From the IMG/VR virus record IMGVR_UViG_3300009499_000053: 64,000 bases of DNA. The stretch is one strand, 5' to 3'. The DNA is from a virus. The position numbers were made by a program, and so were the translations under genes. The notes below the pieces were generated by a model. The model made no database searches, was not told the DNA's origin, and worked only from the letters and a program-made list of their open reading frames with translations. Of the stretch, positions 543 to 58,020 are shown in pieces (the stretch's first letter is position 1; every line of letters begins with the position of its first letter).

Positions 543-689
543 ATGAACAAAAAGAAATGCCCGAGTTGTAAGGGTAGAGGCGGATGGTTCATACCTTCAC
601 ATAGACCATTCTTTCTTACATGGTTTACCTGTGGAATGTGTGGAGGAAGTGGTAGAATAGATGACAATGAATCCAAGTCAGAGAACTGA
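543..689 (+). CDS. small DnaJ-type zinc-finger protein (not in ORF track)
   Basis: Manual translation MNKKKCPSCKGRGG...CGMCGGSG...ESKSEN*; two CxxCxGxG repeats. Confidence 0.6.
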   Translation: MNKKKCPSCKGRGGWFIPSHRPFFLTWFTCGMCGGSGRIDDNESKSEN

Positions 690-876
690 AGAATATATCA
701 TACTCTTTGATACGAGGTTGAAAGGAATAAACATTCTTATAGATCAGAAATGTTATGAACGAGTAAGTAAAAAGAAGGATATACTTCCTATGATTATAGA
801 GATTATCAAGAACAAGAATGCTAATAACTTACAGGTCTTTGTCCTAGGAAAAGAACTTAATGTCGAGTGGGAATAA
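661..876 (+). CDS. small protein with N-terminal NPSxR motif
   Basis: Begins MTMNPSQR. Confidence 0.55.
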   Translation: MTMNPSQRTEEYIILFDTRLKGINILIDQKCYERVSKKKDILPMIIEIIKNKNANNLQVFVLGKELNVEWE

Positions 877-1277
877 TGGATCCAAAACTAGTGTGGGAGA
901 GGGTCTTTAAATCAGATGAGGAGATATACTCAGAGATGATTATAAAGAAACTTCAGAAAGAAGCAGATCAAAAGGCAAAACGTCATAAACTACGAACTAA
1001 TGCCCTTCATTTCATTAGAATCCATGAGTATGAGATAGTTTCCAGAAAGAAAAGAATGGAAGTTCATAAGTGTAAGCTCTGCTCTAAGTTACAGACAAGG
1101 AAAGAAAATGGTGCAGGAAGCTGGAGCGGAGAAATAACTGGTTTTATGTTTCTTGTGGCTGTTCTTTTAACCATATTCTCTCTAGGAATGTTAAGTAGTG
1201 GTAGTTCCCTTGGACTTATCCCAGGTACCTTAGGAATAATATCAGCATATATAACACTGAAACGAGCTATGGAATAA
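867..1277 (+). CDS. hypothetical membrane protein
   Basis: CxxC followed by two C-terminal hydrophobic segments. Confidence 0.55.
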   Translation: MGIMDPKLVWERVFKSDEEIYSEMIIKKLQKEADQKAKRHKLRTNALHFIRIHEYEIVSRKKRMEVHKCKLCSKLQTRKENGAGSWSGEITGFMFLVAVLLTIFSLGMLSSGSSLGLIPGTLGIISAYITLKRAME

Positions 1278-1292
1278 TTTGGTAGTGAGAAA

Positions 1293-1826
1293 ATGACAGA
1301 CCTATTAAGACACTCAGAGGGGATATGGAGAAGTATCTATGTCTTCGCTCTGATAAAAGAGCATTATCGTATTATTGAATGGTTCAAGAAGGAGATGAAG
1401 AAGCTTAAGATAGAAGGATATTCATGGTGTCACTATGGAGAAGTAAGAGGTCCAGTACCTGTTCTTTGTGAGAAGGAACATATTACCTTTAGAGTAGACT
1501 TCCCAGGAACTACATCCTATAATTCCTTTAGAGCAGATCTAGAGAAAACAGAATGGAAATGGGAAGATCATGGTTATGACGAGCCTCTCTGGGTTAAAAG
1601 GGCTTATGAACTAGGAACTAAGCTCTATGAGATGGTAATGGAAACAACTAAAGGACCAGATGTAAATATGAACAATAACTTTATGAGAATACTTCTACAT
1701 GGTTTCTTTAATGATGCACACATGAACTCTAAAGAGGAGACAGAGTTCTACTTATTCCTGTTTCAGTCTTACTTAACAGCTAGGTATGGACTAAGGCCAG
1801 GAGGAGTTAACGATAGTATCCCATAA
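1293..1826 (+). CDS. hypothetical protein, weak resemblance to lantibiotic dehydratase C-terminal (elimination) domain
   Basis: W-C-H-Y...H-I-T-F-R and LLHGFFN...EE..FY echo the WFFxRY...HLRLR and HMxxNR...E..xY patterns; by eye only. Confidence 0.3.
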   Translation: MTDLLRHSEGIWRSIYVFALIKEHYRIIEWFKKEMKKLKIEGYSWCHYGEVRGPVPVLCEKEHITFRVDFPGTTSYNSFRADLEKTEWKWEDHGYDEPLWVKRAYELGTKLYEMVMETTKGPDVNMNNNFMRILLHGFFNDAHMNSKEETEFYLFLFQSYLTARYGLRPGGVNDSIP

Positions 1827-2026
1827 GAAAGAGGTGGAAAGGATTGGTTAGGAAAGTGGAAGGAAGTATAGAACTAAGCAACAAGCTCATGGAAGTAATT
1901 GTTGCTGATCTGAAGAAACTCTATGGTTCCTACTGGAACTTTGAGATAGGGTTTATGGAAGGTTCAGATCCTAAGAAGAACTTCAGTTTGAAGGTTAAAG
2001 TATACAAAAGGTAAGGAGGAATTGGA

Positions 2027-3613
2027 ATGGAAGTAAGAGAGAAGATTAAAGCACAAGTCAAAGAAATCAGAAGGTCTTTGTTCGGTATAGATGAGATCAT
2101 TAAGATATACTGTCTGAGTAAAGCTGCAGATCTGACAGTGCTCATGCTAGGGGAACATGCTATTGCTAAGTCCTCTTTGGCTAGAGATTGGAGCACTACT
2201 ACAAGTCTTGACTTTCGTATAGTCACTAGCTCAGAAGTAGATGAGGCAATGATAGCCTACATAGACCCTGCTATCTTTAGAGAGAAGAATATAGTTCAAA
2301 TGAAAAGAGGAGAATTGATGCTGAGAGATCACATACTCGTAGATGAATTCTTTATGTGGTCTAATAAGTACAGGGCCAAGTTACACCAATTGCTTGAAGA
2401 GAAGACATATGCTGGTCTAGATATAAAAACTAAGACATATACCTTTGCTAGTAACCCAATTACGGAACACTATGCAGGACAACAGGATGAACGGAACCTG
2501 GCTACAGAGGATCGTATTGACTTACTGTTACCAATGTACCAACCTACTGTAACTCCCACCCAGAAGATGATGATGAAGTTCAATAAAAGAGGGAGACATG
2601 AGATAGAACTAGAACCCGTAGTTACATGGGATAATTACCTTGAAGCAAGAGATGACATTATGAAGGTAGAGATACCTCCTGACTTAGTGGTATGGCTTAC
2701 CCTCTTTGCAGAGTCTTTGAGTGCATGTAAGTACTCAGCTTCTAAGTTTGATGTATCTAGGGCTAGGATGCATACACTATGTGCAGAATGTAATCAACGT
2801 AAGCATCTCTGTGCTAAAGTAGCATTATCTAAACCAAGATTCCTAAGGGCAACTATCCTTCTAAGTAAGGCACTTGCATGGTATGATGAAAGGGAGACAA
2901 TCTCAGAAGAGGATGTCTTTGCTTCTGTGAAGTATACACTACCACACAGAATGATATTCCTACAAGAGGAAAGAACCATCTTCGAGGCAGAAAGAGCTCT
3001 TCCAGAGATCCTACAAGAGTTCATAGATGACTTTAACAACTGGGAAAGCAGAAAGATCTTTAGTCACCTTGAAGCATTGATTCTAAAAGCAATAAATGAT
3101 AAGAGTCCATACTTTGACCTAGAATCAGCTAATAATCTCCAGAGTGAGGTAGCAGAACACTTAGCCATAAATAACTATGTAAAAGAGGCCGTAATGAGGG
3201 TTCAACAGGAAGTGAAGAAACGTTACAGAGTAATCCTGAATGCTGGAAAGATCACAAATGTTGATGATATAAAGGAACTACTCAATAAATCTGGCTTAAA
3301 CCTCTATGATAAAGGAGAGATCCTAGAAGAGTACATGTCGAAGAATGAACTCTTAACCTTCTATCATGAGCTAGACAGAAGAGATACGAAGGCTCTAGAA
3401 CGAGTAGCTATTGCAGTAAGAGCACTACATCAGACAGAAACTCCTAATGTAAAGATAAAGTCCAAGATCAGATTAGTGAAAGCCTTTAAGAGAGAAATAA
3501 CCTATGCCTCAGACCTGATACTAATCAAGGAAGAAAGAGGAAGGATTAGGATAACAGCTTCTACACCTGATCTAAAGAAGAAGTTCGAGAAGTTACTGGA
3601 GGAAACTAAATGA
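2027..3613 (+). CDS. MoxR/RavA-like AAA+ ATPase
   Basis: Walker A variant GEHAIAKS, Walker B ILVDE, FASNP sensor, DR arginine finger, LPHR lid; VWA gene nearby. Confidence 0.8.
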   Translation: MEVREKIKAQVKEIRRSLFGIDEIIKIYCLSKAADLTVLMLGEHAIAKSSLARDWSTTTSLDFRIVTSSEVDEAMIAYIDPAIFREKNIVQMKRGELMLRDHILVDEFFMWSNKYRAKLHQLLEEKTYAGLDIKTKTYTFASNPITEHYAGQQDERNLATEDRIDLLLPMYQPTVTPTQKMMMKFNKRGRHEIELEPVVTWDNYLEARDDIMKVEIPPDLVVWLTLFAESLSACKYSASKFDVSRARMHTLCAECNQRKHLCAKVALSKPRFLRATILLSKALAWYDERETISEEDVFASVKYTLPHRMIFLQEERTIFEAERALPEILQEFIDDFNNWESRKIFSHLEALILKAINDKSPYFDLESANNLQSEVAEHLAINNYVKEAVMRVQQEVKKRYRVILNAGKITNVDDIKELLNKSGLNLYDKGEILEEYMSKNELLTFYHELDRRDTKALERVAIAVRALHQTETPNVKIKSKIRLVKAFKREITYASDLILIKEERGRIRITASTPDLKKKFEKLLEETK

Positions 3614-4401
3614 GTTATCTACCTAAAGAGGGAAAGAGAGCAGATTCCTTCCCTGACTATAGTAAGTACTTCTACGACTTCCTAAAGATACCTGAGACAG
3701 AGATCTTTAAGCAGTCTAAACAGGAAAGGGTAAAGCAAATTCTAATCATTATAGCAGGAACTATGGGAATAGGTAAGACTACACTCATAGAGAACATCAT
3801 CAATAACCTCCGGAAACACTATGGAATAGAGAAGACGAATACAGTTTATTCCCAAGTTTCCGCTAAGGTTCTAATGGAGTATGGATTCAAAGGAAATCCC
3901 ATGAGAGGATGGGATGCTGAGAAACCTATTCAGATATTAGTCTTTGATGATGCTACCTCTGCAAGACTAACTAAGAATGATCAAAGACAGTTCTGTAAGA
4001 TGAGACATCAGATGATGGATGATACAAAACTGACTGAGGGAGTAATATTCTCAATCCTGGTTACTCATGATTGGTATCGACTAGATCCTAACTTCCGTAG
4101 AAATGCCATTGTAACAGCCTTTCTCTCAGTATCTCCTCTAGATCAATACTCAAGAAGAGAGTATGGTAGAATCTTAGGAGAAGAAGGAGTACACTTTCTT
4201 TCAGAGAGATTATCTAAGTCTCTACGGTTTGATAAGGATAAGGGAACTGGTCTGGTAGTTCTACCTTTTGTACCTCCAGGAGAAAGGTCTAAGAAAGTAG
4301 GCTGTATTAAATGGAAGAACATACAGGATGTGAACTACATAGTTATTAAAGAACTTCCCTCGGGAAGATTAGTATGGAAGGAAAAGGTGAAACAGAAATG
4401 A
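3610..4401 (+). CDS. P-loop ATPase, A32/FtsK-HerA-like signature
   Basis: GTMGIGKTT, LVFDD, and MRH...SILVTH...LDPNFRRNA. Confidence 0.6.
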   Translation: MSYLPKEGKRADSFPDYSKYFYDFLKIPETEIFKQSKQERVKQILIIIAGTMGIGKTTLIENIINNLRKHYGIEKTNTVYSQVSAKVLMEYGFKGNPMRGWDAEKPIQILVFDDATSARLTKNDQRQFCKMRHQMMDDTKLTEGVIFSILVTHDWYRLDPNFRRNAIVTAFLSVSPLDQYSRREYGRILGEEGVHFLSERLSKSLRFDKDKGTGLVVLPFVPPGERSKKVGCIKWKNIQDVNYIVIKELPSGRLVWKEKVKQK

Positions 4402-4946
4402 ATGAAAAAGTAAACATGATAGAGGATGAGGAAGAAGAAATCTTAGAAAAGACAGGCCCAGATAAGAAACATAACGAGAGAGTCTTCAACTACAAGATTG
4501 CCTCTGAAGAAACTAGAGAGATAGAGGTAAGAGGAATTGCTTTCCTAGTTAAGTTCTACAAGACTACTACAGGAACTGCAGGGATCAGGGTTCAACTAGA
4601 AGACAATGGTCCAATATTCCAGAAGTTCTTAGAGTACTGTAAAGAGAACAAAGGTCAACGGATAGAGAAGGAAACACAAGCTAACCTAATGGCCTTCACT
4701 ACATTTGGTAAACTAGATCAGGGACTAGAGTTCTTTCCAGTAATGGGATTCTATATCTTCCCATTTGGAGATAAGACTACAGAACCACATCTAGTATTCA
4801 ATGAAGAGAAGGATGCTCCTGAACCTATGGAACGCTTAGAGGCATTCATGGACTACTACAAGAAGAAACTTGGTATAAAGGTAAGACCCAAGAAGAGCTC
4901 ATTCGATAGTCTTAGAAAGCTTGTCCTAACAGAAATAGGTGACTAG
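4374..4946 (+). CDS. hypothetical protein
   Basis: 190 aa ORF coupled to both neighbours. Confidence 0.6.
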   Translation: MEGKGETEMNEKVNMIEDEEEEILEKTGPDKKHNERVFNYKIASEETREIEVRGIAFLVKFYKTTTGTAGIRVQLEDNGPIFQKFLEYCKENKGQRIEKETQANLMAFTTFGKLDQGLEFFPVMGFYIFPFGDKTTEPHLVFNEEKDAPEPMERLEAFMDYYKKKLGIKVRPKKSSFDSLRKLVLTEIGD

Positions 4947-4947
4947 T

Positions 4948-5139
4948 ATGCCAACTCATGGAAGTATAAGTAAAGCAGGAAAGGTTCGTAATCAGACTCC
5001 CAAGATTGAGAAGACCCCTAGAAAGAAGAAGAGCCCTAAAGTAAACAACAGGAAGAAACACTACAAACGGTTCATACTAAACCAAGAAGTAGGACAGAGT
5101 GAAATAGGAAGAAGAAAACGTGGAAGACGCAGGGTATAA
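4948..5139 (+). CDS. rps30e: ribosomal protein eS30 (S30e)
   Basis: MPTHGSISKAGKVRNQTPKIEK...NRKKHYKRF matches the eS30 signature HGSLxxAGKVRxQTPK; ATG at 4948 preferred over GTG 4939. Confidence 0.92.
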   Translation: MPTHGSISKAGKVRNQTPKIEKTPRKKKSPKVNNRKKHYKRFILNQEVGQSEIGRRKRGRRRV

Positions 5140-5377
5140 TTCAGGTCTTTGCCCTAACCTTAAAGAATGTGGAGAATGGAGAGGAGAATGGTATTGGGGA
5201 TTCTGTCATCAAGACTTTGCCTGGTCACGATGCCCTCTGTTTATAAAGACAATCAACCCAAGTTCTAGATATCTAGGTATGGAAACCTTCCTTAAGTATA
5301 CTCAGTTAGAAGTAATGAGAAAGGCGTTGAAAGAGAATGTCAAAACCTATACAGGGAAACGTAGAAGTAATCACTAA
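5120..5377 (+). CDS. small Cys-rich protein with internal NPSSR motif
   Basis: CPNLKEC...C...CP, then INPSSR. Confidence 0.55.
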   Translation: MEDAGYNSGLCPNLKECGEWRGEWYWGFCHQDFAWSRCPLFIKTINPSSRYLGMETFLKYTQLEVMRKALKENVKTYTGKRRSNH

Positions 5378-6209
5378 GAAGAACTGGAAGAGGATTAAGC
5401 AGGAAGTAGAGGACTCTGTTCTCCGAGCCTGGAGAAATAGTAAACTTATTGTCCCTAGAATGGCCCTAGACTTCCGAGTACACTTCCAAGAAGTATATGC
5501 ATCATCAACTGGTAGAATCTGGGCTTTTACCCCTTTCTGGAGAGGAAGAGTCTTTACCGATGTTATCATGATGCATGAGTTTCTCCATTGGGCTATATAT
5601 CCTATAGATCTATGGAAGGGACTCTCTGACATGTTCAAGGCACGAAGAATGTTAGCAGAGGATCTTAAGTGGAAACCTACAAACAAGGAAACTGACCTCT
5701 ATGGAGAGGTAGAGGACTGGTCAGGTTTTGAATATGACATTACAGAATTCAGCTTTGTCCAGAATATCTTAGGAGACTATCTAATCAATCTTCATATACA
5801 TGATAACCATCCTATTCTCTTTGCTGATCTATGGAAGTTCCTTTACCATGATGGAACCTTCTATGAGCAACAGAAACAACTAAAGAGAGACTCTACCTTT
5901 ATTCTCTACCTATCAGCATACCCTGATCTTCTAAGTGACATAAAGGAAGAAGTTACCCTGATAGATCCAAAGTCAGAGAAGGACAAGGATAAGATCATAG
6001 ACATTATAGTAGAAGTACGACATGGTAGAATGAGTAAGGTCTACGCCATTAAGGAACTGACTAAGATCTTTCATCCGTACATAGTACAGGATCAGAAGGA
6101 TTCTAAGGGTAACAAGGGAGCAGAACCAAAGTGTCCTAAGTGTGGTCACGATGAGTTTGAGGTAGTAGGGTACGAGGATCCAAAGACAGGGAAGTGGGTA
6201 GATGTCTAA
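5337..6209 (+). CDS. HExxH metallopeptidase-like protein (MoxR/VWA-associated), C-terminal CxxC
   Basis: MHEFLHW, downstream NILGDYLIN, C-terminal CPKC. Confidence 0.65.
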   Translation: MSKPIQGNVEVITKKNWKRIKQEVEDSVLRAWRNSKLIVPRMALDFRVHFQEVYASSTGRIWAFTPFWRGRVFTDVIMMHEFLHWAIYPIDLWKGLSDMFKARRMLAEDLKWKPTNKETDLYGEVEDWSGFEYDITEFSFVQNILGDYLINLHIHDNHPILFADLWKFLYHDGTFYEQQKQLKRDSTFILYLSAYPDLLSDIKEEVTLIDPKSEKDKDKIIDIIVEVRHGRMSKVYAIKELTKIFHPYIVQDQKDSKGNKGAEPKCPKCGHDEFEVVGYEDPKTGKWVDV

Positions 6210-6372
6210 AGGATACTTTAACCCTTCAATGAGACATGATCTACATTTCCATGATAATTGGGGAGATCATGAGTGTCCAGCTAATAAATGTGAGTACATT
6301 GTCTTTGATGACTTTGGATACAGAATCGTCTATTGTAAGAACTGTGGTCAAGCAGATAGAAGGAAGCTATAG
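6202..6372 (+). CDS. small Zn-binding protein, N-terminal FNPSMR (not in ORF track)
   Basis: Manual translation MSKGYFNPSMRHDLHFH...CPANKC...YCKNCGQADRRKL*. Confidence 0.6.
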   Translation: MSKGYFNPSMRHDLHFHDNWGDHECPANKCEYIVFDDFGYRIVYCKNCGQADRRKL

Positions 6373-6383
6373 AGGATGAACAG

Positions 6384-6545
6384 ATGCCTAAGAGAATAGC
6401 ATGCCCTAATTGCAAAGGACATCTTAAGAGAGGGAGCCTAGCTCTAGATGAGAGAGCCTGGGAATGTGAGAATTGTCATACGATCTTTACAGATAAATAC
6501 CCAGTAGAAGAAAAGAAGGGAAAGTTTAACCCCAGTAAAAGATAA
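6384..6545 (+). CDS. Zn-ribbon protein ending FNPSKR (not in ORF track)
   Basis: Manual translation MPKRIACPNC...WECENC...KGKFNPSKR*. Confidence 0.65.
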   Translation: MPKRIACPNCKGHLKRGSLALDERAWECENCHTIFTDKYPVEEKKGKFNPSKR

Positions 6546-6564
6546 GTGTAATAGAACAGTATGA

Positions 6565-6765
6565 GTGACTCTCAGAATGAGTAAATTAGCACCTATAATA
6601 TGTCCAAGATGTCTTAGTAAGGAACTAAGGATAGCAAAGGCTACGTTTGTCACTAAACCTTATCTGATTCACTACTGTCTATGTGGATGGGTAGAAACTA
6701 GAAAATACCGTAAAGGATTAGTACCTATGATCCTTAAAGATTCATTTAACCCGAGTATGAGATAG
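6565..6765 (+). CDS. Zn-ribbon protein ending FNPSMR
   Basis: CPRC...CLCG; terminal motif. Confidence 0.65.
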   Translation: MTLRMSKLAPIICPRCLSKELRIAKATFVTKPYLIHYCLCGWVETRKYRKGLVPMILKDSFNPSMR

Positions 6766-6766
6766 A

Positions 6767-6967
6767 ATGTATAAACCTCCTCAGATATTTCAACCTAAAC
6801 CTGCCCCTGTTTATCAATTCTTGGAGCTAAAGTGTCCTCATTGTGGGTATGAGATCTACCGACCCTACCGTGAATTAACAGACTTACCATCAGAAATACT
6901 ATGTATAAAGTGTGGAAAGCACTACTCTGTATCCAGTCAATGGAATCCTTCGAGGAGATACTTATGA
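6767..6967 (+). CDS. Zn-ribbon protein ending WNPSRRYL
   Basis: CPHC...CIKC; motif. Confidence 0.65.
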   Translation: MYKPPQIFQPKPAPVYQFLELKCPHCGYEIYRPYRELTDLPSEILCIKCGKHYSVSSQWNPSRRYL

Positions 6968-7152
6968 GTAAACATGTTCATTGTCCAAAATGTAATGCCC
7001 AAGGTTACTTAAAGGCACATAAAAAAGAATGGAGTATATTCATTTGCCGAAGATGCAGATGTCTCTTCTCAGTGTCACAGAGCGATTTAGAACAGATACA
7101 TGAGACATCTGACACAGAAGTGGTACTCCCCTTTAATCCTAGTTCGAGGTAG
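6964..7152 (+). CDS. Zn-ribbon protein ending FNPSSR
   Basis: CPKC...CRRC; ATG 6964 overlaps the previous stop. Confidence 0.65.
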   Translation: MSKHVHCPKCNAQGYLKAHKKEWSIFICRRCRCLFSVSQSDLEQIHETSDTEVVLPFNPSSR

Positions 7153-7157: not shown

Positions 7158-7409
7158 ATGAGAAGACCCCGGTTTGAGGAAGTCTGTATCCATCCTTTCT
7201 ATCTTAAGAAGAAGAAACTATGTATCCACCCAGATGACAGAATCTTCTTCTTTGAACATCCGGCCTTCTTCGATAAATCTTTCTTTAGTTCTGATAAAGT
7301 ATTCAAACCCTTTCAGTTAGGAATGATTTATGGATATGAGGTCTTTGTTCAGGATGATATGCAGATTATGCTCCTAAGTATGAATGGAGGAAAGAGTGTT
7401 GAAGATTAA
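7158..7409 (+). CDS. hypothetical protein
   Basis: Coupled ORF with a duplicated CIHP. Confidence 0.45.
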   Translation: MRRPRFEEVCIHPFYLKKKKLCIHPDDRIFFFEHPAFFDKSFFSSDKVFKPFQLGMIYGYEVFVQDDMQIMLLSMNGGKSVED

Positions 7410-8397
7410 GATAAAATGTACTAAATGTAATTGGGAAGCAGTAGTAGAGGTATCACGCTCCCCCTTAGGTTCTCTAAAACCAGGTAAAGCTATCAAGGGT
7501 ACAGGGAAAGGACTGAAAGTTAAGTGGACAAAGGAACAACTGGATAAGGTTATGGATGCTGCTGGAGGACTAGGTGCCTCTAGAGATGAGCTAGGTCAGG
7601 TAGGTATCCGTGTCCCCATTCCTCAGTGGGTAGACGCCCTGGAACGTAGAAGACTTAGACAGTTTGTAAGGAAGCATCTAAAGGTCTCTAAAGATTTAAG
7701 AAACGCTCAGGGAGAAAGAAGTCAAGTATCTACTGCTCCTTGGCAAATGGGAGATTCTTTCAAAGATGTAGATCTAGCCTCTAGTGAAATTGCAGCCTAT
7801 GGAGTTCCCGATCTTCGTCTTATTCCTGGAGTAACCCTACAGAAGAGGGTCTTTGAGACTACTAAGGGAGGAGACCGAGAGATACTTAGGGGAATAAAGT
7901 TCTTTAACATCATAGATGTCTCAGGAAGTATGTTCGGCGGATCAAGTCAAAGTCAAGGAAATATCGATAAGGTTCACAAAGCACTTATGATGGCCGAAGA
8001 GACATCAAAGATCTGTAAGAAGTTAGGTTATGACTACAACTTGTCTATCTTCTCTGGTATAGCTACTAGGATTCCCAAGAGAAAGATCAAAAGATTCTTT
8101 AAATCTGAGACTGAAAGAGCAACCTATCCTGGATGGAATGGAGGAACTACACTATCATCTGCTCTCGGACTATACGATCTAAAGGAACTCAAGGATGGAA
8201 ACTTGGTCATAATGTCTGACATGGATATATCTGACTCTGAGGAATCTAAGAAGAAGTTGAAAGAGATAGGAAATGTAACCTCATCCTTCAAGGTAGTAAT
8301 TATAGAGTATCGTTCTCAACTAAGGAAAGAAAGATTAATAAGAACAAGGGAACTATTTCCAGATAAGAAAGTACAAATACTCCGAATAGCAATCTAA
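7384..8397 (+). CDS. von Willebrand factor A (VWA) domain protein
   Basis: MIDAS DVSGS, GGT, SD motifs; N-terminal CTKC. Confidence 0.8.
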   Translation: MEERVLKIKIKCTKCNWEAVVEVSRSPLGSLKPGKAIKGTGKGLKVKWTKEQLDKVMDAAGGLGASRDELGQVGIRVPIPQWVDALERRRLRQFVRKHLKVSKDLRNAQGERSQVSTAPWQMGDSFKDVDLASSEIAAYGVPDLRLIPGVTLQKRVFETTKGGDREILRGIKFFNIIDVSGSMFGGSSQSQGNIDKVHKALMMAEETSKICKKLGYDYNLSIFSGIATRIPKRKIKRFFKSETERATYPGWNGGTTLSSALGLYDLKELKDGNLVIMSDMDISDSEESKKKLKEIGNVTSSFKVVIIEYRSQLRKERLIRTRELFPDKKVQILRIAI

Positions 8398-8586
8398 ACA
8401 GGAGGATCTATTATTGCCGAATAAAAAAGAAACAAAAGATTTCGAGATGAAGTCAGAATACTGGGAAGTAACAATAGACAAGGCAGACCATTCTGAGATT
8501 AAGTACATCATCGTCTTCAAGGATAAGGTGATCCCAGTGGGAGAACTAAGAAAGCTTGAAGAGGCTATAAGGAAGGTTCTCGAAGC

Positions 8587-8808
8587 ATGTGGCCGTATAG
8601 AGACTTTGCATCCTTCAAAACGCCAATAAATCTTGACAAATGCAAGGTCTGTGGTACCTATGTCTGTCTTGTACCAGTGACCTATGGCAATGCATTGTTT
8701 GGATACGTCTGTGGCCTCTGTGCAGGGATCCTATTCACGAAAGGGAACCTTAGAATAGGTTTCAACCCAAGCTCTAGAAACCCCTGGAGGATAGTGAAAG
8801 TAAAATGA
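8587..8808 (+). CDS. Zn-finger protein with FNPSSR
   Basis: CKVC...CGLC; motif near C-terminus; start uncertain. Confidence 0.55.
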   Translation: MWPYRDFASFKTPINLDKCKVCGTYVCLVPVTYGNALFGYVCGLCAGILFTKGNLRIGFNPSSRNPWRIVKVK

Positions 8809-9032
8809 CAAAAGTAATACTTGAAGAAGATTCCTGGATTAGATGGATAGACAAAAAAGGCAATGGTACAATAAGAGTAGGTCAAGTTAAGAGACGAATA
8901 AAGGATAAGCCCTTTGATAGTCAGAATATAACAGTGGCTACTCCTAACTATGGAGAAACACAGTTAGATGTTAGTACAATCATAGAGGTCTTCCCTAAAA
9001 TAACAATAAGATTTAATCCTTCGGAGCGATAG
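8805..9032 (+). CDS. small protein ending FNPSER
   Basis: Terminal motif. Confidence 0.6.
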   Translation: MTKVILEEDSWIRWIDKKGNGTIRVGQVKRRIKDKPFDSQNITVATPNYGETQLDVSTIIEVFPKITIRFNPSER

Positions 9033-9034: not shown

Positions 9035-9325
9035 ATGAAACTACAAGGAATGTTCAAATGCCCTCAATGCGGAGGAGAGTTTGATGCATGCAGACCCAGT
9101 GGTCCTGGTAGAATCTGGGCTCATTGTGTAAGTTGTTCTCTAGTAGTTATTATAGAAGACTACAAACTCTGGCTAAGACGAGCACAGAGAAGAAAACAAC
9201 AAAAAACGGGAGTTCATGGTAGTAAATCGTATTCAGGAACGTTAGTCTACCCAGGTTTTGATACAGGGAAAACAAAGGAAATAGAGAAAAAGGAAAAGGA
9301 TGAATACAATCCAACGGAGAGATAA
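9035..9325 (+). CDS. Zn-ribbon protein ending YNPTER
   Basis: CPQC...CVSC; terminal motif. Confidence 0.65.
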   Translation: MKLQGMFKCPQCGGEFDACRPSGPGRIWAHCVSCSLVVIIEDYKLWLRRAQRRKQQKTGVHGSKSYSGTLVYPGFDTGKTKEIEKKEKDEYNPTER

Positions 9326-9329: not shown

Positions 9330-9602
9330 ATGCCTTATATAAAAGAAGAGGATCGTGTACCGATTAGTAGATATCTAAATGATCTGATAGCAATACTCAG
9401 AATCAAGACAGATAAGGGAAAACAAAGCAATGGTCAGGTAGTTTATGCTATCTATAGGATTATCAAGGAAGTCTATGGAGAAGGACGTTTTGAAGTAAAG
9501 AGTAATGCTTTGAAAGTCTTGGATGCTGCAGGTAAGGAATACTACAGACGAATCATGGTTCCGTACGAAAAAGAGAAGATCAAGGAAAATGGAGACGTCT
9601 AG
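9330..9602 (+). CDS. conserved viral hypothetical protein (MPYIK-type)
   Basis: MPYIKEEDR...EYYRRIMVPYEKEKIKENGDV, a pattern I recognise from a widespread small phage family. Confidence 0.6.
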   Translation: MPYIKEEDRVPISRYLNDLIAILRIKTDKGKQSNGQVVYAIYRIIKEVYGEGRFEVKSNALKVLDAAGKEYYRRIMVPYEKEKIKENGDV

Positions 9603-9864
9603 TTTGGGTCTCAATTACTTTAAGTGTAAAATCTGTGGATTCTCTTTTCTAGAACTGTACAATCTTGAACACCATATGCTAACTTATCATAGGAAAGAAC
9701 ATACCCTAAAGAGGAAACAAGGTAACTTTGGTTGTTATTGGAGATGTTCCGAGTGTGGAATGGCATTCAAGAATGTGAAAACAGCTCTCAATCATTCAGG
9801 AGAAATGAATCATAATCCGACAGAGAGAATCGAACTGGATGGCTTTAATCCTTCGAGGAGATAA
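9589..9864 (+). CDS. C2H2 zinc-finger protein with two motif copies (HNPTER, FNPSRR*)
   Basis: CKIC...HHMLTYH; CSEC...H...H. Confidence 0.65.
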   Translation: METSSLGLNYFKCKICGFSFLELYNLEHHMLTYHRKEHTLKRKQGNFGCYWRCSECGMAFKNVKTALNHSGEMNHNPTERIELDGFNPSRR

Positions 9865-9978: not shown

Positions 9979-10023
9979 ATGGCAGAGAAAGAATTCAATC
10001 CAACAAAAAGAGGGGAAAATTAA
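9979..10023 (+). CDS. 14-aa micro-ORF made essentially of the motif (MAEKEFNPTKRGEN)
   Basis: Starts 2 nt after the upstream stop; its stop abuts the next ATG at 10024. Confidence 0.45.
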   Translation: MAEKEFNPTKRGEN

Positions 10024-10368
10024 ATGAGTGATGAAGGAAAGAAAAAGATCAAGATAGACAGGTATAATCCAAGCTCTAGGAAGAACGAAATAATAGAGAT
10101 AGAGCAGGTACAAATAGGAACAGTAAAGTACAAAGACATTGGAGATAACTTTGAATGCCTTGTAGGGATAGAGACAGAAGATTCGGATGCTGGTTTGTAC
10201 AGAGGAAAGAGTGTAACTATGAACTCACCCAGGAGAATATCTAGGATTAGGTGGGATGTATCTAAACACCACAGCCTAGGAGATAGAGTAGATCTTAGTC
10301 CCAGAGATATTCAAGTCCTAGATGCAATCCTTCAATACCTAAAGAAAATGGGTTACCATGTGGGATAA
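10024..10368 (+). CDS. hypothetical protein with N-terminal YNPSSR
   Basis: Motif near residue 14. Confidence 0.6.
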   Translation: MSDEGKKKIKIDRYNPSSRKNEIIEIEQVQIGTVKYKDIGDNFECLVGIETEDSDAGLYRGKSVTMNSPRRISRIRWDVSKHHSLGDRVDLSPRDIQVLDAILQYLKKMGYHVG

Positions 10369-10566
10369 GAAAGATGGGCAAAGTGAAAGACATACTAAAG
10401 AAACTTAGAGGAAAACAAGGGACTATTTCAGATCTAGAGATTCCACCGGATCATGTTAGATGTTCAAGGTGTAAAAAGACAGTTCCTAAGGGAAAGGCTA
10501 CTGTTGACCTAGAGGCCTCGACAAGACGTACAGAGGTATGGGTCTGTGATGGATGTTTCTTTGGAC

Positions 10567-10809
10567 ATGCAATCTAAGGAATACCCCTCTAATCTTCGGG
10601 GAAGACTCTCGGAACAGACCAGATGTGAAGTCTGTAAAGACTTTCTCAATGATTCTTGGTGTCTAACAAGCGTATGTCAGATTTGTTGTGAGAAGGGACG
10701 TTGTAGGAGAAAAGAACATTGTTGTGTCTATCCAGATATCCTAGTTCGTCTACAGTATCAGAAAAAAGAAAGTGTGATCTATAATCCATCTAAGAGGATA
10801 AAGATTTGA
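10567..10809 (+). CDS. Cys-rich protein ending YNPSKRIKI
   Basis: Multiple Cys; motif. Confidence 0.6.
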   Translation: MQSKEYPSNLRGRLSEQTRCEVCKDFLNDSWCLTSVCQICCEKGRCRRKEHCCVYPDILVRLQYQKKESVIYNPSKRIKI

Positions 10810-11090
10810 CCCTTAAAAAGAGAGAATGTTATTACTGTAAGACAGATGTTACTGAGGGTGAACGTCTGAGGATCAGTTTAATGGCAGGAAAGGCTAAGTA
10901 TGTTGGTACTAGCTTACAAAGTAGTGGACAGCTTGAAAAGATTTATGTCTGTTCTGACTGTTCTAGAGATTACTTTGAACTCATAGTTATGGGACACAGT
11001 AATACGCACAATCACTTAAAGTTAATACTCCAAAGAATGATTCCTACTAAGAGAATAAAGAAAAGAGAATGGAACCCTACGGAGAGATAA
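10806..11090 (+). CDS. Zn-finger protein ending WNPTER
   Basis: CYYC...CSDC; terminal motif. Confidence 0.65.
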   Translation: MTLKKRECYYCKTDVTEGERLRISLMAGKAKYVGTSLQSSGQLEKIYVCSDCSRDYFELIVMGHSNTHNHLKLILQRMIPTKRIKKREWNPTER

Positions 11091-13499: not shown

Positions 13500-13688
13500 A
13501 TGAAAGATCAATATGGTAGACTACTTCAGTGTCCTCAGTGTCGTGGATATATGATTATAGGAGTCCATGTACCTTTTGCTTCTAGCAGACATCGATGCAC
13601 AGATTGTGGTTATAAGGGTAGGGAAGAGTCCTTTAGGGCTGTTCCAGCTAAGGCTGTAATTGAATACTTTAATCCATCGGAGAGATAG
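13500..13688 (+). CDS. Zn-ribbon protein ending FNPSER
   Basis: CPQC...CTDC; terminal motif. Confidence 0.65.
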   Translation: MKDQYGRLLQCPQCRGYMIIGVHVPFASSRHRCTDCGYKGREESFRAVPAKAVIEYFNPSER

Positions 13689-13690: not shown

Positions 13691-13978
13691 ATGAAAAATA
13701 GAACCCTTTCATCTAAGAAGAAGACACTTGACTTTGATAAGATAGAGATAATCATCAGAAGTCTAACCCTAGACGAGTTGACTATAGTCCTTGGAAAGAT
13801 AAAGAACGGTCCTCTTCATGGAGCAAAGCAGGCACTTGAATATGGAATAGTATCTCCTCCCAGTATCAAGAATAATCCTGGAAGATTAAACGCTGAGATT
13901 GCACTTGTTGTTGCAACAGAGATTCTAACACTATCAGGACTATATGAGAAACCCCCCTATAACCCCTCCGAGAGATAA
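13691..13978 (+). CDS. small protein ending YNPSER
   Basis: Terminal motif; no Cys. Confidence 0.6.
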   Translation: MKNRTLSSKKKTLDFDKIEIIIRSLTLDELTIVLGKIKNGPLHGAKQALEYGIVSPPSIKNNPGRLNAEIALVVATEILTLSGLYEKPPYNPSER

Positions 13979-13980: not shown

Positions 13981-14217
13981 ATGGGCTTCATTTCATCATC
14001 AACAGTAGAGTTTAAAAAGGCAAAGTACCCAAAGCTCACGATGGAAACTATCTGTGCTAACTGTGGAACAATGGGTTGGAAGACTATGATGAGGAAAACG
14101 GGTAGACTATGGGTCTGTAATAGCTGTTGGAAACTATTCAAAGAAGAGATAATGAACCAAAAGACCGACAATGTAACAGTTAGGAAAAGAAGGTTTAATC
14201 CATCGGAGAGGTACTGA
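13981..14217 (+). CDS. Zn-finger protein ending FNPSERY
   Basis: CANC...CNSC; motif. Confidence 0.65.
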   Translation: MGFISSSTVEFKKAKYPKLTMETICANCGTMGWKTMMRKTGRLWVCNSCWKLFKEEIMNQKTDNVTVRKRRFNPSERY

Positions 14218-14381
14218 TGGAAACCACATGTTCCTTTTGTGGAAGGAAATCTAAGATTACTACGATAATCAGTAGTTTCTTTATTTGTGAGAGATGTCAT
14301 CTAGAGTATGAAAAGACAAAAGCTGGAATGACTACAATGGAAAAGTATAAAGATAAACGATTTAACCCATCGGAGAGATAA
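14217..14381 (+). CDS. Zn-finger protein ending FNPSER (not in ORF track)
   Basis: METTCSFCG...ICERCH...KRFNPSER*. Confidence 0.65.
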   Translation: METTCSFCGRKSKITTIISSFFICERCHLEYEKTKAGMTTMEKYKDKRFNPSER

Positions 14382-14383: not shown

Positions 14384-14596
14384 ATGGAATGTCCAACCTG
14401 TAATAAGGAGAGTCAACCTCTCTGTCCATTCTATGATGGATGTAAATATAGACATTCACAGCTCCAAGCAGAGAGGGTTTGCTGGAAGACACCACACTAC
14501 TGTGACATCTATAGAAAGAAGAACAGAAGAGCACCCCCGACAGAACGAGAGGAGGAGTTTAATCCTTCAGAGAGGGATAATGATGTTGATATGTAG
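14384..14596 (+). CDS. Cys-rich protein with FNPSER near C-terminus
   Basis: CPTC, several more Cys; motif. Confidence 0.6.
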   Translation: MECPTCNKESQPLCPFYDGCKYRHSQLQAERVCWKTPHYCDIYRKKNRRAPPTEREEEFNPSERDNDVDM

Positions 14597-14789
14597 TGAG
14601 TGTCTTATGGACTATAAGCTCTCCAAACCAATGTTCCTTACCTCAAGGAGTAAAAGTCTTTGTGAAGATTGTAATCGGATCAGAACTTGTTTTAATATTC
14701 CTGCAAGTGTATACTCTTACAAGGATCTAAGGGACGTTAAGATACTAGAGAGAAAGAGAAAGAAATCATTCAACCCTTCGGAGAGGTAA
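14580..14789 (+). CDS. Zn-finger protein ending FNPSER
   Basis: CSEC...CEDC; terminal motif. Confidence 0.6.
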   Translation: MMLICSECLMDYKLSKPMFLTSRSKSLCEDCNRIRTCFNIPASVYSYKDLRDVKILERKRKKSFNPSER

Positions 14790-14792: not shown

Positions 14793-15026
14793 TTGGGTGG
14801 ACGAGTTAGTTGGGAAGATGCGTATACACCTTGTAAGAAAGCGATAGTACCTTTATATGGGGAGAAGAAGAAAGTAAAGTATAGTTATTGTAATGACTGT
14901 CAGTTTTCTTTTGAGAGGAAGAGTCGGAGGAAAGATTGTCCCAAGTGTGGATCCTATAACATTTCTTTTATGGGAGGGAGTTTTGTCCCAGTAAAGGGGA
15001 TGTATTGGAATCCTTCAGAGAGATGA
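14793..15026 (+). CDS. Zn-ribbon protein ending WNPSER
   Basis: CNDC...CPKCGS; terminal motif. Confidence 0.65.
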   Translation: MGGRVSWEDAYTPCKKAIVPLYGEKKKVKYSYCNDCQFSFERKSRRKDCPKCGSYNISFMGGSFVPVKGMYWNPSER

Positions 15027-43768: not shown

Positions 43769-44025
43769 GGATAGAGATAGTAAGGAAGAAGGCAGAGAAC
43801 CCAATAGATAAGGATCCTATGATTACCTGGTTATGGGATGCCCTTAATCCCCTCTTTAAGGAGACAGATGGAAAGGTAATGGTCTACATGTCAGATGACC
43901 TAGGACCTAATGAGGATCAGAGGGGTATGGTTATCTACCTAGAGGGTCTGAAGTCAACAGAGATGCGTATAAGAAAGATTATAGAACTAAATCCGACAAA
44001 TAGGAACTATCAGGAGGAGAAATAA
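43726..44025 (+). CDS. small protein with LNPTNR near C-terminus
   Basis: Motif. Confidence 0.5.
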   Translation: MGEGIEATTGCDRLRIEIVRKKAENPIDKDPMITWLWDALNPLFKETDGKVMVYMSDDLGPNEDQRGMVIYLEGLKSTEMRIRKIIELNPTNRNYQEEK

Positions 44026-44414: not shown

Positions 44415-44531
44415 ATGAGTATAGGGAAGATGATTTTTGAGAAGAACCCAGATCTCTTAGAGGAAGAGGAACTGGTAGATGTAGATAACCCTAGTTCAAG
44501 ATATTTTGGAATTGATCAGAATGATAAGTGA
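44415..44531 (+). CDS. 38-aa acidic microprotein with DNPSSR (not in ORF track)
   Basis: MSIGKMIFEKNPDLLEEEELVDVDNPSSRYFGIDQNDK*. Confidence 0.45.
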   Translation: MSIGKMIFEKNPDLLEEEELVDVDNPSSRYFGIDQNDK

Positions 44532-53228: not shown

Positions 53229-53240
53229 GAGGAATATAAA

Positions 53241-54996: not shown

Positions 54997-55005
54997 GTGA
55001 AGTAA

Positions 55006-56038: not shown

Positions 56039-56718
56039 GGAAGAAAAAAGTAAAGATTAGTTTCTGTATTCTAAACTACTATGAGGACTGGTTAGTAGTT
56101 AGGACCATATCACAGGTTTATGATTTCGTTGATGAGATACTAATTGGGGATACTTCCAGAGGTAAAGATCTGATACCCAGAGCGGTAGACGGCCTTCCTA
56201 AGTGTAGGATTGTGCCCGACCCTGGGTTCGATGAGGGAAGCAATTTCAGTTGGTCAGAGTGGAGGAACTATGTTCAGTCATTTGCTAAGGGAGACTGGGT
56301 AATGTGGACTGACCCAGATGAGATATACCCCCTGAACCTAATGAGGAATCTTAGAGGCTGGTTAGAGAGAACGACAGCAGAGGCAATTGGTCTGGTTAGA
56401 ATAGCATATGAAACACACAAACGAATGGTAGTTAGGAACAAGGAACCGAAGATTCGGATATGGAGAAACCTTAACCGAATTAGGTGGTCAAGGAAGATAC
56501 ATGAGAGTCCTGAGGGATTTAAGGACTATGAGATCTGGGATGTGACATATGCCCATGACATTAACTGGTTACCCAGTTTTCCACAGAGGATATACAAGCT
56601 TAAGAAGAGGGAAAGGAGAGGAAACATCCTTCCTAGGATAAAGAAGAATGACCTAGATCCCTACAGAGAACGCTACCCCAATGAGAAAGAGGAAGACGCG
56701 TTTAGATCAAGGGAGTGA
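56035..56718 (+). CDS. GT2 (GT-A) glycosyltransferase
   Basis: VDEILIGD, RN, DPDE, IHE. Confidence 0.75.
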   Translation: MRKKKVKISFCILNYYEDWLVVRTISQVYDFVDEILIGDTSRGKDLIPRAVDGLPKCRIVPDPGFDEGSNFSWSEWRNYVQSFAKGDWVMWTDPDEIYPLNLMRNLRGWLERTTAEAIGLVRIAYETHKRMVVRNKEPKIRIWRNLNRIRWSRKIHESPEGFKDYEIWDVTYAHDINWLPSFPQRIYKLKKRERRGNILPRIKKNDLDPYRERYPNEKEEDAFRSRE

Positions 56719-56722
56719 CATT

Positions 56723-57334
56723 ATGGCTTCTTCACAAGACCATGCTAAGGCTAAGGCCCTAATAAGAACTAAGAGGGGAAACATCCTTATTGATGTTGGG
56801 GCTAATGATGGTTACTACAGTATGCTACTCAGAAGAAACTTTAAGAAGGTCTATGCCATAGAACCCTTCCCCAAGTCAGTAAGTGTACTCAAGAGAAACC
56901 TTAGGAATGGAAAGATTACCAACGTAGAGGTTCTTCCATTTGCTGTGGGAAGTAGAACAGGGAAGACTAAGATGTACCTCTCCCTAAGGGGAACCAAGTG
57001 TCATAGTCTCCTAAGGGTGGGTGAGAGGACAATCATAGTAGACTGCTACACTCTTAATGACCTCTTTCCAGACTATGAGGGAATAGACCTTATCAAGGTT
57101 GATGTGGAGGGAGGGGAGATTGAGGTTCTCCTGGGAGCAGAGAAGATCATGAAGAACGTAAAGTCATGGTTCATAGAGATGCATGACCTAGGGGAGATCC
57201 TAAGGGGACTACCACATAGTAGGGAGAGAACGAGGGGACACAATGATCGAATAGATAAGATGTTAAAGGGTTATGGTTATGAGACTGAATGGATACTAGA
57301 AAGATGGGTATATGCGGAGAGAAAGAAATGCTAA
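56723..57334 (+). CDS. FkbM-family methyltransferase
   Basis: DVGANDG, IEP, IKVDVEGGE. Confidence 0.88.
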   Translation: MASSQDHAKAKALIRTKRGNILIDVGANDGYYSMLLRRNFKKVYAIEPFPKSVSVLKRNLRNGKITNVEVLPFAVGSRTGKTKMYLSLRGTKCHSLLRVGERTIIVDCYTLNDLFPDYEGIDLIKVDVEGGEIEVLLGAEKIMKNVKSWFIEMHDLGEILRGLPHSRERTRGHNDRIDKMLKGYGYETEWILERWVYAERKKC

Positions 57335-57492
57335 GAAAGTCTAGAGGGATCTCCCTCGTATTCTCAGGAGAAGGATCACAGGCACGTAGAATCCTGCGAC
57401 CAATGAATGATCCTCTTACTGGAGAACACCTAAGCAATAATGGTGTATCTACACCTACCTGCTTATCTAAGCGTTTTGAGGAGTGTACATAG

Positions 57493-57856
57493 TATGGACT
57501 CTCTGTCTATTGTAGAGATAATGCCTATAGAGTATGATAAGAGAAGGAAAGTAGTACATACATACTCAAAGATATGTACACAGGACATGACTGCTCAACG
57601 TCTAAGGGACCTCTACATAAACCTGGGATTTAAGAATGCTCCTGTAGTTACCCACCTTGGAGAGGCATTCCTCATAACGTTCTTCCCCAAACCACCTATC
57701 ATCATCTCCAAGAGTGATGGGAGAATGTACACCTTTGTTGGTGGTAAGTGGGATCTTAAGGAAGCACAACATCAAGCGTCTTTAGTAATGAGGGTACTAG
57801 TTGAGTTTGACCTAGTAGGGAACCATAAGAGGAGAAGTGTACGGAGGAGAAAGTAA
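57493..57856 (+). CDS. hypothetical protein
   Basis: ORF in the same tightly packed run. Confidence 0.5.
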
Positions 57857-58020
57857 TGGAAGGAACTGGCTGTTCAGTTGTCAATAGTAAAAAATGGCAC
57901 ATATTTGATTGTCCCTACTGTAGCTTTAAAACAAGGATTTGGGATATTATGCAGGAACATATGAAGACGCACCCTAATCCAATACTAAAGAAACCAGGAT
58001 TTAATCCATCAAGAAGATAG
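57856..58020 (+). CDS. C2H2 zinc-finger protein ending FNPSRR (not in ORF track)
   Basis: MEGTG...CPYC...HMKTH...PGFNPSRR*. Confidence 0.65.
   Translation: MEGTGCSVVNSKKWHIFDCPYCSFKTRIWDIMQEHMKTHPNPILKKPGFNPSRR

Follow-up and report, generated by a model that had tools for sequence, protein, structure and literature searches.

We analyzed a 64-kb stretch of DNA (the window), which is bases 8066-72065 of the 133-kb virus record IMGVR_UViG_3300009499_000053, and found that about 40 small and otherwise dissimilar proteins carry the same six-residue peptide, [FWY]-N-P-[ST]-x-R (the tag), mostly at or near an end of the protein. The tag is a short linear motif at protein termini and lies outside any common domain. 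Comparison with related viruses supports purifying selection on the motif as a peptide, and we think there is a good chance that the carriers all dock through it on one common partner, of whatever kind. The partner that we rank first, tentatively, is a MoxR/VWA module encoded in the same window.

Counts, specificity and position of the motif

An initial annotation of the window, made from the sequence alone, had claimed 40 copies of NP[ST]xR in 38 small open reading frames (ORFs), fifteen of them directly before the stop codon and six N-terminal. When we counted over ORFs of at least 30 amino acids (aa), we obtained 40 copies in 38 ORFs, recovered the identical fifteen stop positions and found six copies that start within the first 17 residues. 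Over all six frames the motif occurs 42 times in the + frames (19, 13 and 10) and four times in the - frames (2, 2 and 0). In 200 second-order Markov shuffles it occurred 1.64 +/- 1.30 times with a maximum of 6, so the idea that non-coding frames or shuffled sequence would hold the motif as often is excluded.

Within the window, the motif is also nearly confined to small proteins. We compared small and large proteins on a non-overlapping gene set, where 36 of the 93 proteins of at most 140 aa (7,836 aa) hold 38 copies, against 0.09 copies (maximum 2) when residues were shuffled within each protein. The 42 proteins longer than 140 aa (12,385 aa) hold one copy, DNPSVR in a 296-aa metallophosphatase, which is probably there by chance and is missing from the orthologue. 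The claim that no large enzyme has the motif is right for the window except for this copy, and wrong outside the window, where the terminase large subunit has it.

Five of the six positions are nearly fixed. After [FWY]NP, [ST]xR follows in 32 of 39 cases; the third position is S or T in 42 of the 49 matches to NP..R, and R stands two residues after NP[ST] in 42 of 59. Over six viruses, an aromatic residue precedes N in 61 of 80 copies. An aromatic at +1 or +2 after R is found in 11 of the 19 copies that have no upstream aromatic, compared to 6 of the 61 that have one (Fisher p = 4e-5). We write the consensus as [FWY]-N-P-[ST]-x-R; a second version reads NPSSR-x(0-1)-[FWY], and the pattern fits a single aromatic pocket beside an NPS-x-R turn. 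A stop codon comes directly after the motif in 26 of 52 aromatic-preceded copies, and most of the others are no farther than about 15 aa from the C-terminus or 22 aa from the N-terminus.

The carriers had been described as otherwise dissimilar, and this proved correct. With the tag masked, the 36 carriers gave 36 singletons (BLASTP, E < 0.01), which rules out a hidden paralogue family as the cause, and a Pfam scan of the carriers found no domain common to them, which rules out a known domain. CxxC pairs are present in about two thirds of the carriers and one carrier is a C2H2 finger; there may be very distant kinship among the Zn-ribbon carriers. We also ruled out an N-glycosylation sequon because the tag has Pro at the X position, and Pro at that position normally excludes N-glycosylation. 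The annotation recognized no described precedent for the motif, and neither did we find a description in the literature: searches on the motif strings and on accession numbers returned nothing relevant, with NPTXR matching a human gene. A DNA pattern for FNPSER followed by a stop codon had 0 matches in IMG/VR.

One further copy of NP[ST]xR is in the structural arm of the genome, where a 188-aa ORF without a Pfam match (genome 75277-75843, - strand; L057:777-1343) contains KNPSKRF (residue 52), perhaps by chance or perhaps as a further carrier.

Conservation of the tag in related viruses

The annotation had suggested looking for the motif in related viral contigs, and it is present there. One relative is JABAOC010000279.1 (NCBI, 125 kb; PolB 78% identical), and the 51 kb of it that we examined has 21 motif copies. 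The tag is kept in 16 of the 17 orthologous pairs with this relative, at overall identities of 26-58%; only the metallophosphatase copy is lost. For over half of the carriers in the window no homologue could be detected in the relative, while the enzymes are 60-85% identical, and therefore we regard the carriers as a fast-turning-over accessory set with a constant tail. For the carriers whose dS could be estimated, the ratio of nonsynonymous to synonymous substitution rates (dN/dS) is 0.27-0.48, a value expected for genes that are translated.

In three further viruses with PolB 60-68% identical (L009-L011), the tag is on small ORFs that flank polB, mostly just downstream of it. A fourth virus, L049, has 12 motif copies in 21 kb. 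Distant relatives have 2-6 in-frame copies per 21 kb in the loci that we examined, compared to dozens in the window's clade. In the complete genomes G001 and G003, matches to the DNA pattern cluster around the MoxR/HExxH/VWA operon. The tag has expanded, with about 3-8 carriers in distant relatives and about 40 in this virus.

Codon usage and overlap with ribosome-binding sites

The fixed residues of the tag are encoded by varied synonymous codons. Asn is encoded by AAT and AAC, Pro by all four of its codons, Ser by TCN and AGY, and Arg by AGR and CGN. We judge from this that selection acts on the peptide, because Ser appears as both AGY and TCN, the carriers have no other likeness, and the tag is kept in orthologues that are 26-58% identical.

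There is a second layer at the nucleotide level. A Shine-Dalgarno site (GGAG or GAGG 5-19 nt before the next start) is found for 70 of the 124 window genes, mostly 11-15 nt upstream. Within codons 3-5 of the tag, GGAG or GAGG is present in 12 of 18 C-terminal copies and in 3 of 21 others, and its spacing there matches the usual one for Shine-Dalgarno sites in the window. Glu at the x position is encoded by GAG in 14 of 14 copies (genome 55%), and TCG accounts for 8 of 44 tag Ser codons (genome 3%). The last codons of C-terminal copies double as a Shine-Dalgarno site for the gene that follows, and this biases x. The overlap explains why NPSER, NPSRR and NPTER dominate at gene ends and NPSSR inside genes. 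Since it largely explains the regional variants of the tag, local copying need not be invoked. By our reading of the codons the overlap accounts for the x position only, and not for N, P, S/T or R.

DNA repeat families between 5 and 17.7 kb include tags, and they are limited to 17-25 nt of tag plus stop/start junction. We rejected DNA repeat or duplication as the main cause because the repeats are confined in this way and the flanks are unrelated.

The terminase large subunit as a carrier

The T4-type terminase large subunit (genome 96521-98032, - strand; L056:2521-4032) has ..QCNPSSRHFTG.. at residues 13-23, in an N-terminal extension ahead of the ATPase domain. No other large protein of this genome has the extended motif, and its aromatic comes after R, an arrangement also seen in the small proteins that lack an aromatic before N. 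All 15 terminase orthologues that are at least 60% identical have xNPSSRxF within the first 22 residues, and the residues before it vary. At 44-51% identity, most orthologues have [SN]PSF[KR]xF instead, and some distant orthologues have no N-terminal extension at all. The initial annotation saw the tag as a short linear motif on a diverse set of small domains. Most of this description stands (the motif is linear, terminal, without a shared domain and selected as a peptide), but its carriers are not only small, since the terminase is one too.

Among GenBank phages, the terminase matched only those of Thermus, Meiothermus and Ralstonia, at 23-26% identity. Roughly 50 viruses have a homologue of the terminase. 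One is also present in a metagenome-assembled genome labelled Candidatus Parvarchaeota, which may be a binning artefact. Two terminase orthologues, P0165 and P0192, are about 770-830 aa long with Pfam domains that include a LAGLIDADG homing endonuclease, which suggests that they contain inteins.

The MoxR/HExxH/VWA operon

The old copies of the tag on small proteins are found around an operon that we call module 1. Its first gene (2027..3613, +) encodes a 528-aa MoxR-like AAA+ ATPase with orthologues in all relatives examined. The P-loop is GEHAIAKS, which we take to be of the MoxR type. In Pfam this protein matches AAA_lid_2 (1e-6, 28.8 bits, cut-off 22.7) and, below the cut-off of 27, bpMoxR (6e-4, 19.3 bits). 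It is followed by a 263-aa P-loop NTPase (3610..4401, +) with Walker A GTMGIGKT and weak AAA and RNA_helicase matches, and by a conserved 190-aa protein (4374..4946, +) that has no Pfam match and is 58% identical in JABAOC010000279.1. A very basic 66-aa ORF is at window 4939-5139.

The next large gene (5337..6209, +) encodes a 290-aa zincin-like HExxH protein with a C-terminal CxxC, and H80, E81 and H84 are invariant in five orthologues. Its structural model (predicted local distance difference test score, pLDDT, of 65) had no Foldseek match, and VIA-align gave weak matches (Z 4-6) that are enriched in zincins and zinc peptidases. The VWA protein (7384..8397, +) is 337 aa long with an N-terminal CxxC and the metal-ion-dependent adhesion site (MIDAS) motif DVSGS, in which D178, G181 and S182 are invariant in 28 sequences; it has 33 homologues and no Pfam match. 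In Foldseek its AlphaFold2 model (pLDDT 74) matched the VWA domain of NorD from the NorQD complex first (E 1e-5), and then BatB, the Ro60 vWA and CMG2, with a probability of 1.00 to NorD, BatB, Ro60 and integrin I domains. The model indicates a VWA fold whose nearest structural counterpart is NorD, which partners the MoxR ATPase NorQ.

We compared the VWA locus in eight viruses: the window, the 125-kb relative, L049, L050, L051 (which is G001), L052, L053 (G002) and L083 (G003), with VWA identities of 44-100%. The order MoxR, HExxH, VWA is constant in the seven whose locus spans all three genes, and in the eight viruses a protein of 160-190 aa is encoded between MoxR and HExxH. In G003 the VWA gene is abutted by the HExxH gene and has MoxR about 1.8 kb upstream. 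At least one Zn-ribbon ORF with NPSx[KR] near the end lies upstream of the VWA gene in 8/8 viruses. The last such ORF overlaps or abuts the VWA start in seven viruses, and in the window there is one untagged ORF between them. Downstream of the VWA gene, 8/8 viruses have a conserved ORF of 63-71 aa that ends in ..EACGR....[NHRDS]PS[KR]R. It adjoins the VWA gene in seven viruses, and in G003 other short ORFs are predicted between. The window's version (8414..8629, +) ends in a degenerate tag, ..LHPSKRQ, and its orthologues in seven relatives end in RPSKR, DPSKR, SPSKR, NPSKR (three) and NPSRR.

In all orthologues that we aligned there is a CxxC at the C-terminus of the HExxH protein and at the N-terminus of the VWA protein, and these halves may form a shared zinc site between the two proteins. 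We considered whether 5337-6209 and 7384-8397 are a split DUF2201 and rejected this, because neither has a Pfam match and hhalign to the genome's DUF2201 protein gave a probability below 1%. Judging from the models, the likeness to DUF2201 is one of fold only, clear for the VWA part and weak for the zincin part. When the VWA and HExxH proteins were co-folded with a tagged Zn-ribbon protein and Mg, the score was 0.00, to which we give no weight either way.

A second module and a second tag

The other + strand arm of the genome has a module 2 (genome 109822-112597), which consists of a mini-VWA protein, a MoxR-like ATPase and a DUF2201_N + DUF2201 (peptidase-VWA) protein. Module 2 heads an array of genes with a different tag, [LFV]Wxx[LIV]F, and the module 2 ATPase itself ends in this tag (..LWKFIM). 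The second tag has 38 copies in + frames compared to 11 in - frames, over genome 105-133 kb and 0-9 kb (L046, L047 and L048), including window 867-1277. Two modules with two tags are suggestive of a parallel arrangement.

Candidate readers of the tag

Our preferred reading is as follows. The old, conserved copies would be those at the terminase N-terminus and in the C-terminal tails of the small proteins flanking the VWA gene, and in the window's clade the peptide would have spread to about 40 unrelated and rapidly turning-over small proteins, mostly zinc ribbons. One virus-encoded partner would recognize all carriers through the terminal tail. Of the candidates, this partner would most likely be the MoxR-VWA (plus zincin-like) chaperone machine, which might hold, remodel, load or process the carriers, with these acting as its clients or else as interchangeable adaptors. 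The machine comes first in our ranking because tagged ORFs are fixed around the VWA gene, there is a parallel second module, and the known workings of MoxR-VWA systems fit. Even so, we put its odds of being the common partner well below even.

MoxR ATPases and their VWA partners work together on dedicated targets, and NorD docks on NorQ through its last residues (PMC13036017). A jumbo-phage MoxR-vWA pair with a fused metallopeptidase has a proposed role in virion assembly, and a MoxR-vWA pair is reported as needed for tail development in Acidianus two-tailed virus (ATV) (PMC7824862). Since viral pairs have been proposed as virion-assembly chaperones, the terminase is a plausible client. In the complete genomes G001 and G003, the terminase peptide, MoxR, VWA, ClpP and the tags near VWA are all present. 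The 59% complete genome G004 has a terminase without the peptide, no module and no tags. The annotation had also listed AAA+ and GHKL proteins among the candidate partners to check. The classical AAA+ protein (27169-28545) and the GHKL ATPase (15350-16846) were not detected in the complete genomes G001 and G003, which keep the motif, and are therefore unlikely ancestral readers.

Several points weigh against the MoxR-VWA machine as the reader. We infer docking from the distribution of the motif and from gene position, and the link to the module comes from gene position in about eight related viruses; as these represent few independent lineages, shared ancestry could yield the same pattern of module and tag. 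G004, the sole genome that lacks all three features, is incomplete. ClpP is present in all relatives as well. The ligand of a VWA MIDAS site is normally acidic, and only about one copy in four has an acidic residue at x. In other phages, the known partners of the terminase are the small terminase and the portal, not chaperones. Finally, modules 1 and 2 have no detectable sequence similarity by hhalign/profile comparison, and therefore two paralogous readers are not established.

If the MoxR-VWA reading is extended to both modules, viral MoxR-VWA-peptidase machines would choose their clients by a terminal peptide code, with two machines and two codes (NP[ST]xR and [LFV]Wxx[LIV]F), each on about 40 small proteins and one also on the terminase. 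We consider this larger model doubtful, at roughly one chance in a handful. If true, it would define a recognition motif for a MoxR-class chaperone for the first time, and would mean that fast-evolving small effectors or adaptors are plugged in modular fashion into one ATP-driven remodeller.

The main rival to the MoxR-VWA reader is the packaging machinery. Here the peptide would dock the terminase on the small terminase, the portal or the procapsid, and the small-protein copies would be brought there as cargo or as packaging regulators. The best-conserved carrier is the terminase large subunit, with the peptide in its N-terminal extension, and a subset of the small proteins copies the terminase version closely (NPSSRYFG). 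There are also parallels in well-studied phages, as the terminase N-terminus of phage lambda binds the small subunit and a short shared peptide sends internal proteins into the head of phage T4. However, this leaves the tails of the VWA-flanking ORFs in 8/8 viruses unexplained, and the carriers are encoded in the replication/accessory arm rather than in the structural module. On balance we find it improbable, though it deserves more attention than the alternatives that follow.

The tag could instead be a degron, a terminal peptide that marks short-lived proteins, including the terminase, for a viral protease (the ClpP-like protein at 22338-22937, or LonB in the head module) or for the host proteasome. 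Like the tag, degrons of AAA+ proteases are found at either end of a protein; the carriers are small accessory proteins, and ClpP is conserved in all tag-bearing relatives, G001 and G003 included. But the classical AAA+ that could feed ClpP was undetected in the complete relatives that keep the motif, ClpP and the tagged genes have no positional link, and the six near-invariant positions make the motif more specific than known degrons. We regard a degron as quite unlikely.

We give an equally low weight to mimicry, in which the peptide would copy a host motif and bind a hub such as PCNA, RNA polymerase, the ribosome or a chaperone, making the small proteins a library of hub-anchored effectors. 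Clamp-binding peptides typically sit at the ends of many unrelated partner proteins, and the virus family has host-like translation genes. PCNA_N was not found in G000, G001 or G003 (controls were detected), so the clamp would have to be that of the host. The motif is unlike a PCNA-interacting protein (PIP) box, and the fixed link with the VWA gene is left unexplained.

It is very unlikely that the tag is a modification site, at which a viral enzyme would phosphorylate, glycosylate or ADP-ribosylate the invariant Ser/Thr or Arg. The invariance of Ser/Thr and Arg is in its favor, and the genome encodes several GT4 glycosyltransferases (with GT4 genes inside the tag zone) and a dual-specificity phosphatase (DSPc) near module 2, but no such enzyme has a positional or phyletic link to the tag and a terminal preference is not expected.

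A purely nucleic-acid explanation, in which the repeated 17-25 nt (TTTAATCCNTCGGAGAGRTA) would serve for ribosome binding or recombination where gene cassettes join, with the peptide as a by-product, draws on the GGAG/GAGG enrichment, the GAG and TCG biases and the confinement of the repeat families to tag and junction, but it is largely excluded and is the least probable of all, since N, P, S/T and R are also kept in N-terminal and internal copies, which have no Shine-Dalgarno site and vary freely in their synonymous codons (AGY and TCN for Ser among them), the terminase copy sits inside a gene, and frame-shifted copies of the DNA motif are rarer than in-frame ones.

The tag gives three handles on the orphan small genes of this virus: a common peptide, a well-understood carrier in the terminase, and a conserved operon that is a candidate reader. 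If the reader is the MoxR-VWA machine, the tag would be a defined recognition peptide for that class, and if it is the packaging machinery, the tag would point to a new route for cargo loading or packaging control. Under either reading, identifying the reader could give dozens of orphan genes a shared context at once.

Carrier proteins in the window

All carriers in the window are on the + strand. Beginning at the left, the carrier at 661..876 has MNPSQR at residue 4, and its orthologue keeps LNPSKR. The copy in 5120..5377 is internal (INPSSRYL) and that in 6202..6372 is N-terminal (FNPSMR). Ahead of the VWA gene there are Zn-ribbon carriers with C-terminal FNPSKR (6384..6545), WNPSRRYL (6767..6967) and FNPSSR (6901..7152), and a carrier with C-terminal FNPSMR (6565..6765). 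The carrier at 6767..6967 aligns with the relatives' Zn-ribbon ORF just upstream of the VWA gene. A zinc-finger carrier far to the right, at 57856..58020 with C-terminal FNPSRR, is similar by BLASTP to a relative's orthologue of 6767..6967.

After the VWA gene, 8587..8808 has FNPSSR 9 aa before its end. The Cys-free carrier at 8805..9032 ends in FNPSER, as does its orthologue (dN/dS 0.48), and the Zn-ribbon carrier at 9035..9325 ends in YNPTER. The C2H2 zinc-finger carrier at 9523..9864 (Pfam zf-C2H2, 1e-6) has two copies, HNPTER and a terminal FNPSRR. A putative 14-codon ORF at 9979..10023, MAEKEFNPTKRGEN, comes directly before 10024..10368, which has YNPSSR at residue 15. Next are a Cys-rich carrier with C-terminal YNPSKRIKI (10546..10809) and a carrier with C-terminal WNPTER (10806..11090).

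Between 13500 and 15026, Zn-ribbon carriers end in FNPSER (13500..13688), FNPSERY (13981..14217), FNPSER (14217..14381) and WNPSER (14793..15026), and a Cys-free carrier ends in YNPSER (13691..13978). A putative ORF at 14384..14596, with FNPSER 5 aa before its end, overlaps in another frame the carrier at 14433..14789, which has C-terminal FNPSER. Likewise, the Cys-rich carrier at 41758..42141 (C-terminal FNPTKR) overlaps in another frame the Zn-ribbon carrier at 42029..42385 (C-terminal WNPTER). These tagged overlapping pairs (14384-14789 and 41758-42385) are either mis-set starts or true double coding. A 57% identical orthologue of 41758..42141 has FNPSKRNTEI, and L009 has FNPSKRDEN in a similar sequence context.

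Two carriers have the tag at residue 17, FNPSER in 16804..17019 and FNPSSR in 17338..17628. Copies a few residues from the C-terminus are FNPSMR in 19245..19574 (8 aa before the end; the orthologue ends in FNPSLR, dN/dS 0.27), GNPSSRHG in 20624..21025 (7 aa; the orthologue keeps GNPSSRFG), FNPSCR in 24690..24851 (5 aa) and LNPTNRNY in 43726..44025 (6 aa). The Zn-ribbon carrier at 26243..26506 has C-terminal FNPTARVQ where its orthologue has FNPSSRDK. The carrier at 26603..26902 ends in NNPSSRWYC, with the aromatic after R, and an orthologue that is 26% identical ends in NNPTSRFFK. Another Zn-ribbon carrier, at 31915..32181, has FNPSSR 15 aa before its end; a tail-anchored, membrane-like carrier at 32153..32440 has FNPSSR at residue 10, and 41576..41761 has C-terminal FNPTKRGKP. 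The terminase-like version is found twice in 31159..31578 (DNPSSRYFG and SNPSSRTFG) and once in a 38-aa ORF at 44415..44531 (DNPSSRYFG).

Genome, relatives and host

CheckV gives the virus record a completeness of 86%, and IMG/VR classes its ends as 'provirus'. The full-length stretch was found in one run only, subsurface-metagenome DNA from 2017 that is possibly the source DNA itself, and no RNA run was listed. Genes run in the + direction to about 65 kb of the genome, in the - direction (the structural module) to about 100 kb, and then + again. A 1013-aa ORF without a Pfam match (window 59813-62854, - strand) is where the - strand structural arm begins.

The virus encodes PolB, RadA, ERCC4, ribonucleotide reductase, ClpP, glycosyltransferases and a T4-type terminase large subunit. 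Outside the virus group, homologues of PolB are mostly haloarchaeal at about 27% identity, and relatives encode eS26, Alba and a eukaryote-type topoisomerase IB. The host is likely an archaeon, and the tag is specific to a single family of viruses, which are large, tailed, uncultivated and probably archaeal. The window DNA had no match among GenBank phages and PolB as a query had none in IMG/VR. Among genome contigs, ribonucleotide reductase matched only cellular reductases at 59% identity or less, which gave no clue to the host.

Topoisomerase IB (Topoisom_I_N, Topoisom_I and Topo_C_assoc) is present in the distant relatives at L050:12955-14586, L051:12505-14058 and L052:12792-14360, and one distant relative that has it also has glutamine synthetase and Alba. 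These three genes are possible hints at the host lineage. A Ribosomal_S26e match is in one relative (L052:16080-16358). The PolB of L010 (1703-5230) is 1175 aa long with Hom_end and LAGLIDADG_3 matches and probably contains an intein, unlike the window PolB (38550-41129), which has neither match. A nucleoside 2-deoxyribosyltransferase-like gene is directly upstream of the ClpP-like gene in L050:19602-20661, L051:17219-18368 and L052:18351-19486, and in the window (21462-22937) there is a 119-aa ORF between the two.

Comparison with known systems

Shared terminal address peptides have precedents in the T4 capsid-targeting sequence, clamp-binding peptides, degrons and the NorD tail. What is unusual here is the scale, the copy on the terminase and the tie to a MoxR-VWA operon. 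We know of no terminal address peptide that has been described for archaeal viruses, with the sequence of this tag, or across about 40% of a virus's small proteins. To our knowledge, MoxR-VWA systems are widespread and their choice of targets is poorly understood.

The T4 capsid-targeting sequence, which is on IPI, IPII, IPIII and Alt, is likewise a short terminal peptide on unrelated small proteins of a variable accessory set, and it has one viral reader. It is N-terminal, about 10 residues long, cleaved by the prohead protease and present on a handful of proteins. In contrast, the tag is mostly C-terminal, six residues long and on about 40 proteins plus the terminase and the small proteins of the MoxR-VWA operon. 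Cleavage at a copy that sits at the very C-terminus would leave nothing to remove beyond the tag.

NorD/CbbO on NorQ/CbbQ share with module 1 a MoxR ATPase and a MIDAS VWA protein, and there the terminus of the partner docks on a MoxR-class AAA+ ring. However, that docking tail is on the VWA protein only, whereas here a different sequence is common to dozens of small proteins and docking is proposed. The viral MoxR-vWA pairs (jumbo phage group 2.2, and p618/p892 of ATV) have the same set of a MoxR ATPase, a VWA partner and an HExxH peptidase-like domain, and module 2 has the fused DUF2201_N + DUF2201 form, like jumbo phage group 2.2. They differ in that no client-recognition peptide has been described for them, and in that the HExxH and VWA proteins of module 1 are separate and without a Pfam match.

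PIP boxes and other clamp-binding peptides are short motifs at the extreme termini of many unrelated proteins that share one hub. Their consensus, Qxx[LIM]xx[FY][FY], differs from the tag; we detected no viral PCNA, and PolB is without the tag. The poxvirus ankyrin/PRANC (F-box-like) proteins combine a variable body with a constant C-terminal element and have undergone a lineage-specific expansion. PRANC is a folded domain of about 40 residues on bodies that are all ankyrin repeats, and it plugs these variable bodies into one machine, whereas in the tagged proteins only six residues are constant and the rest is unrelated from one protein to the next.

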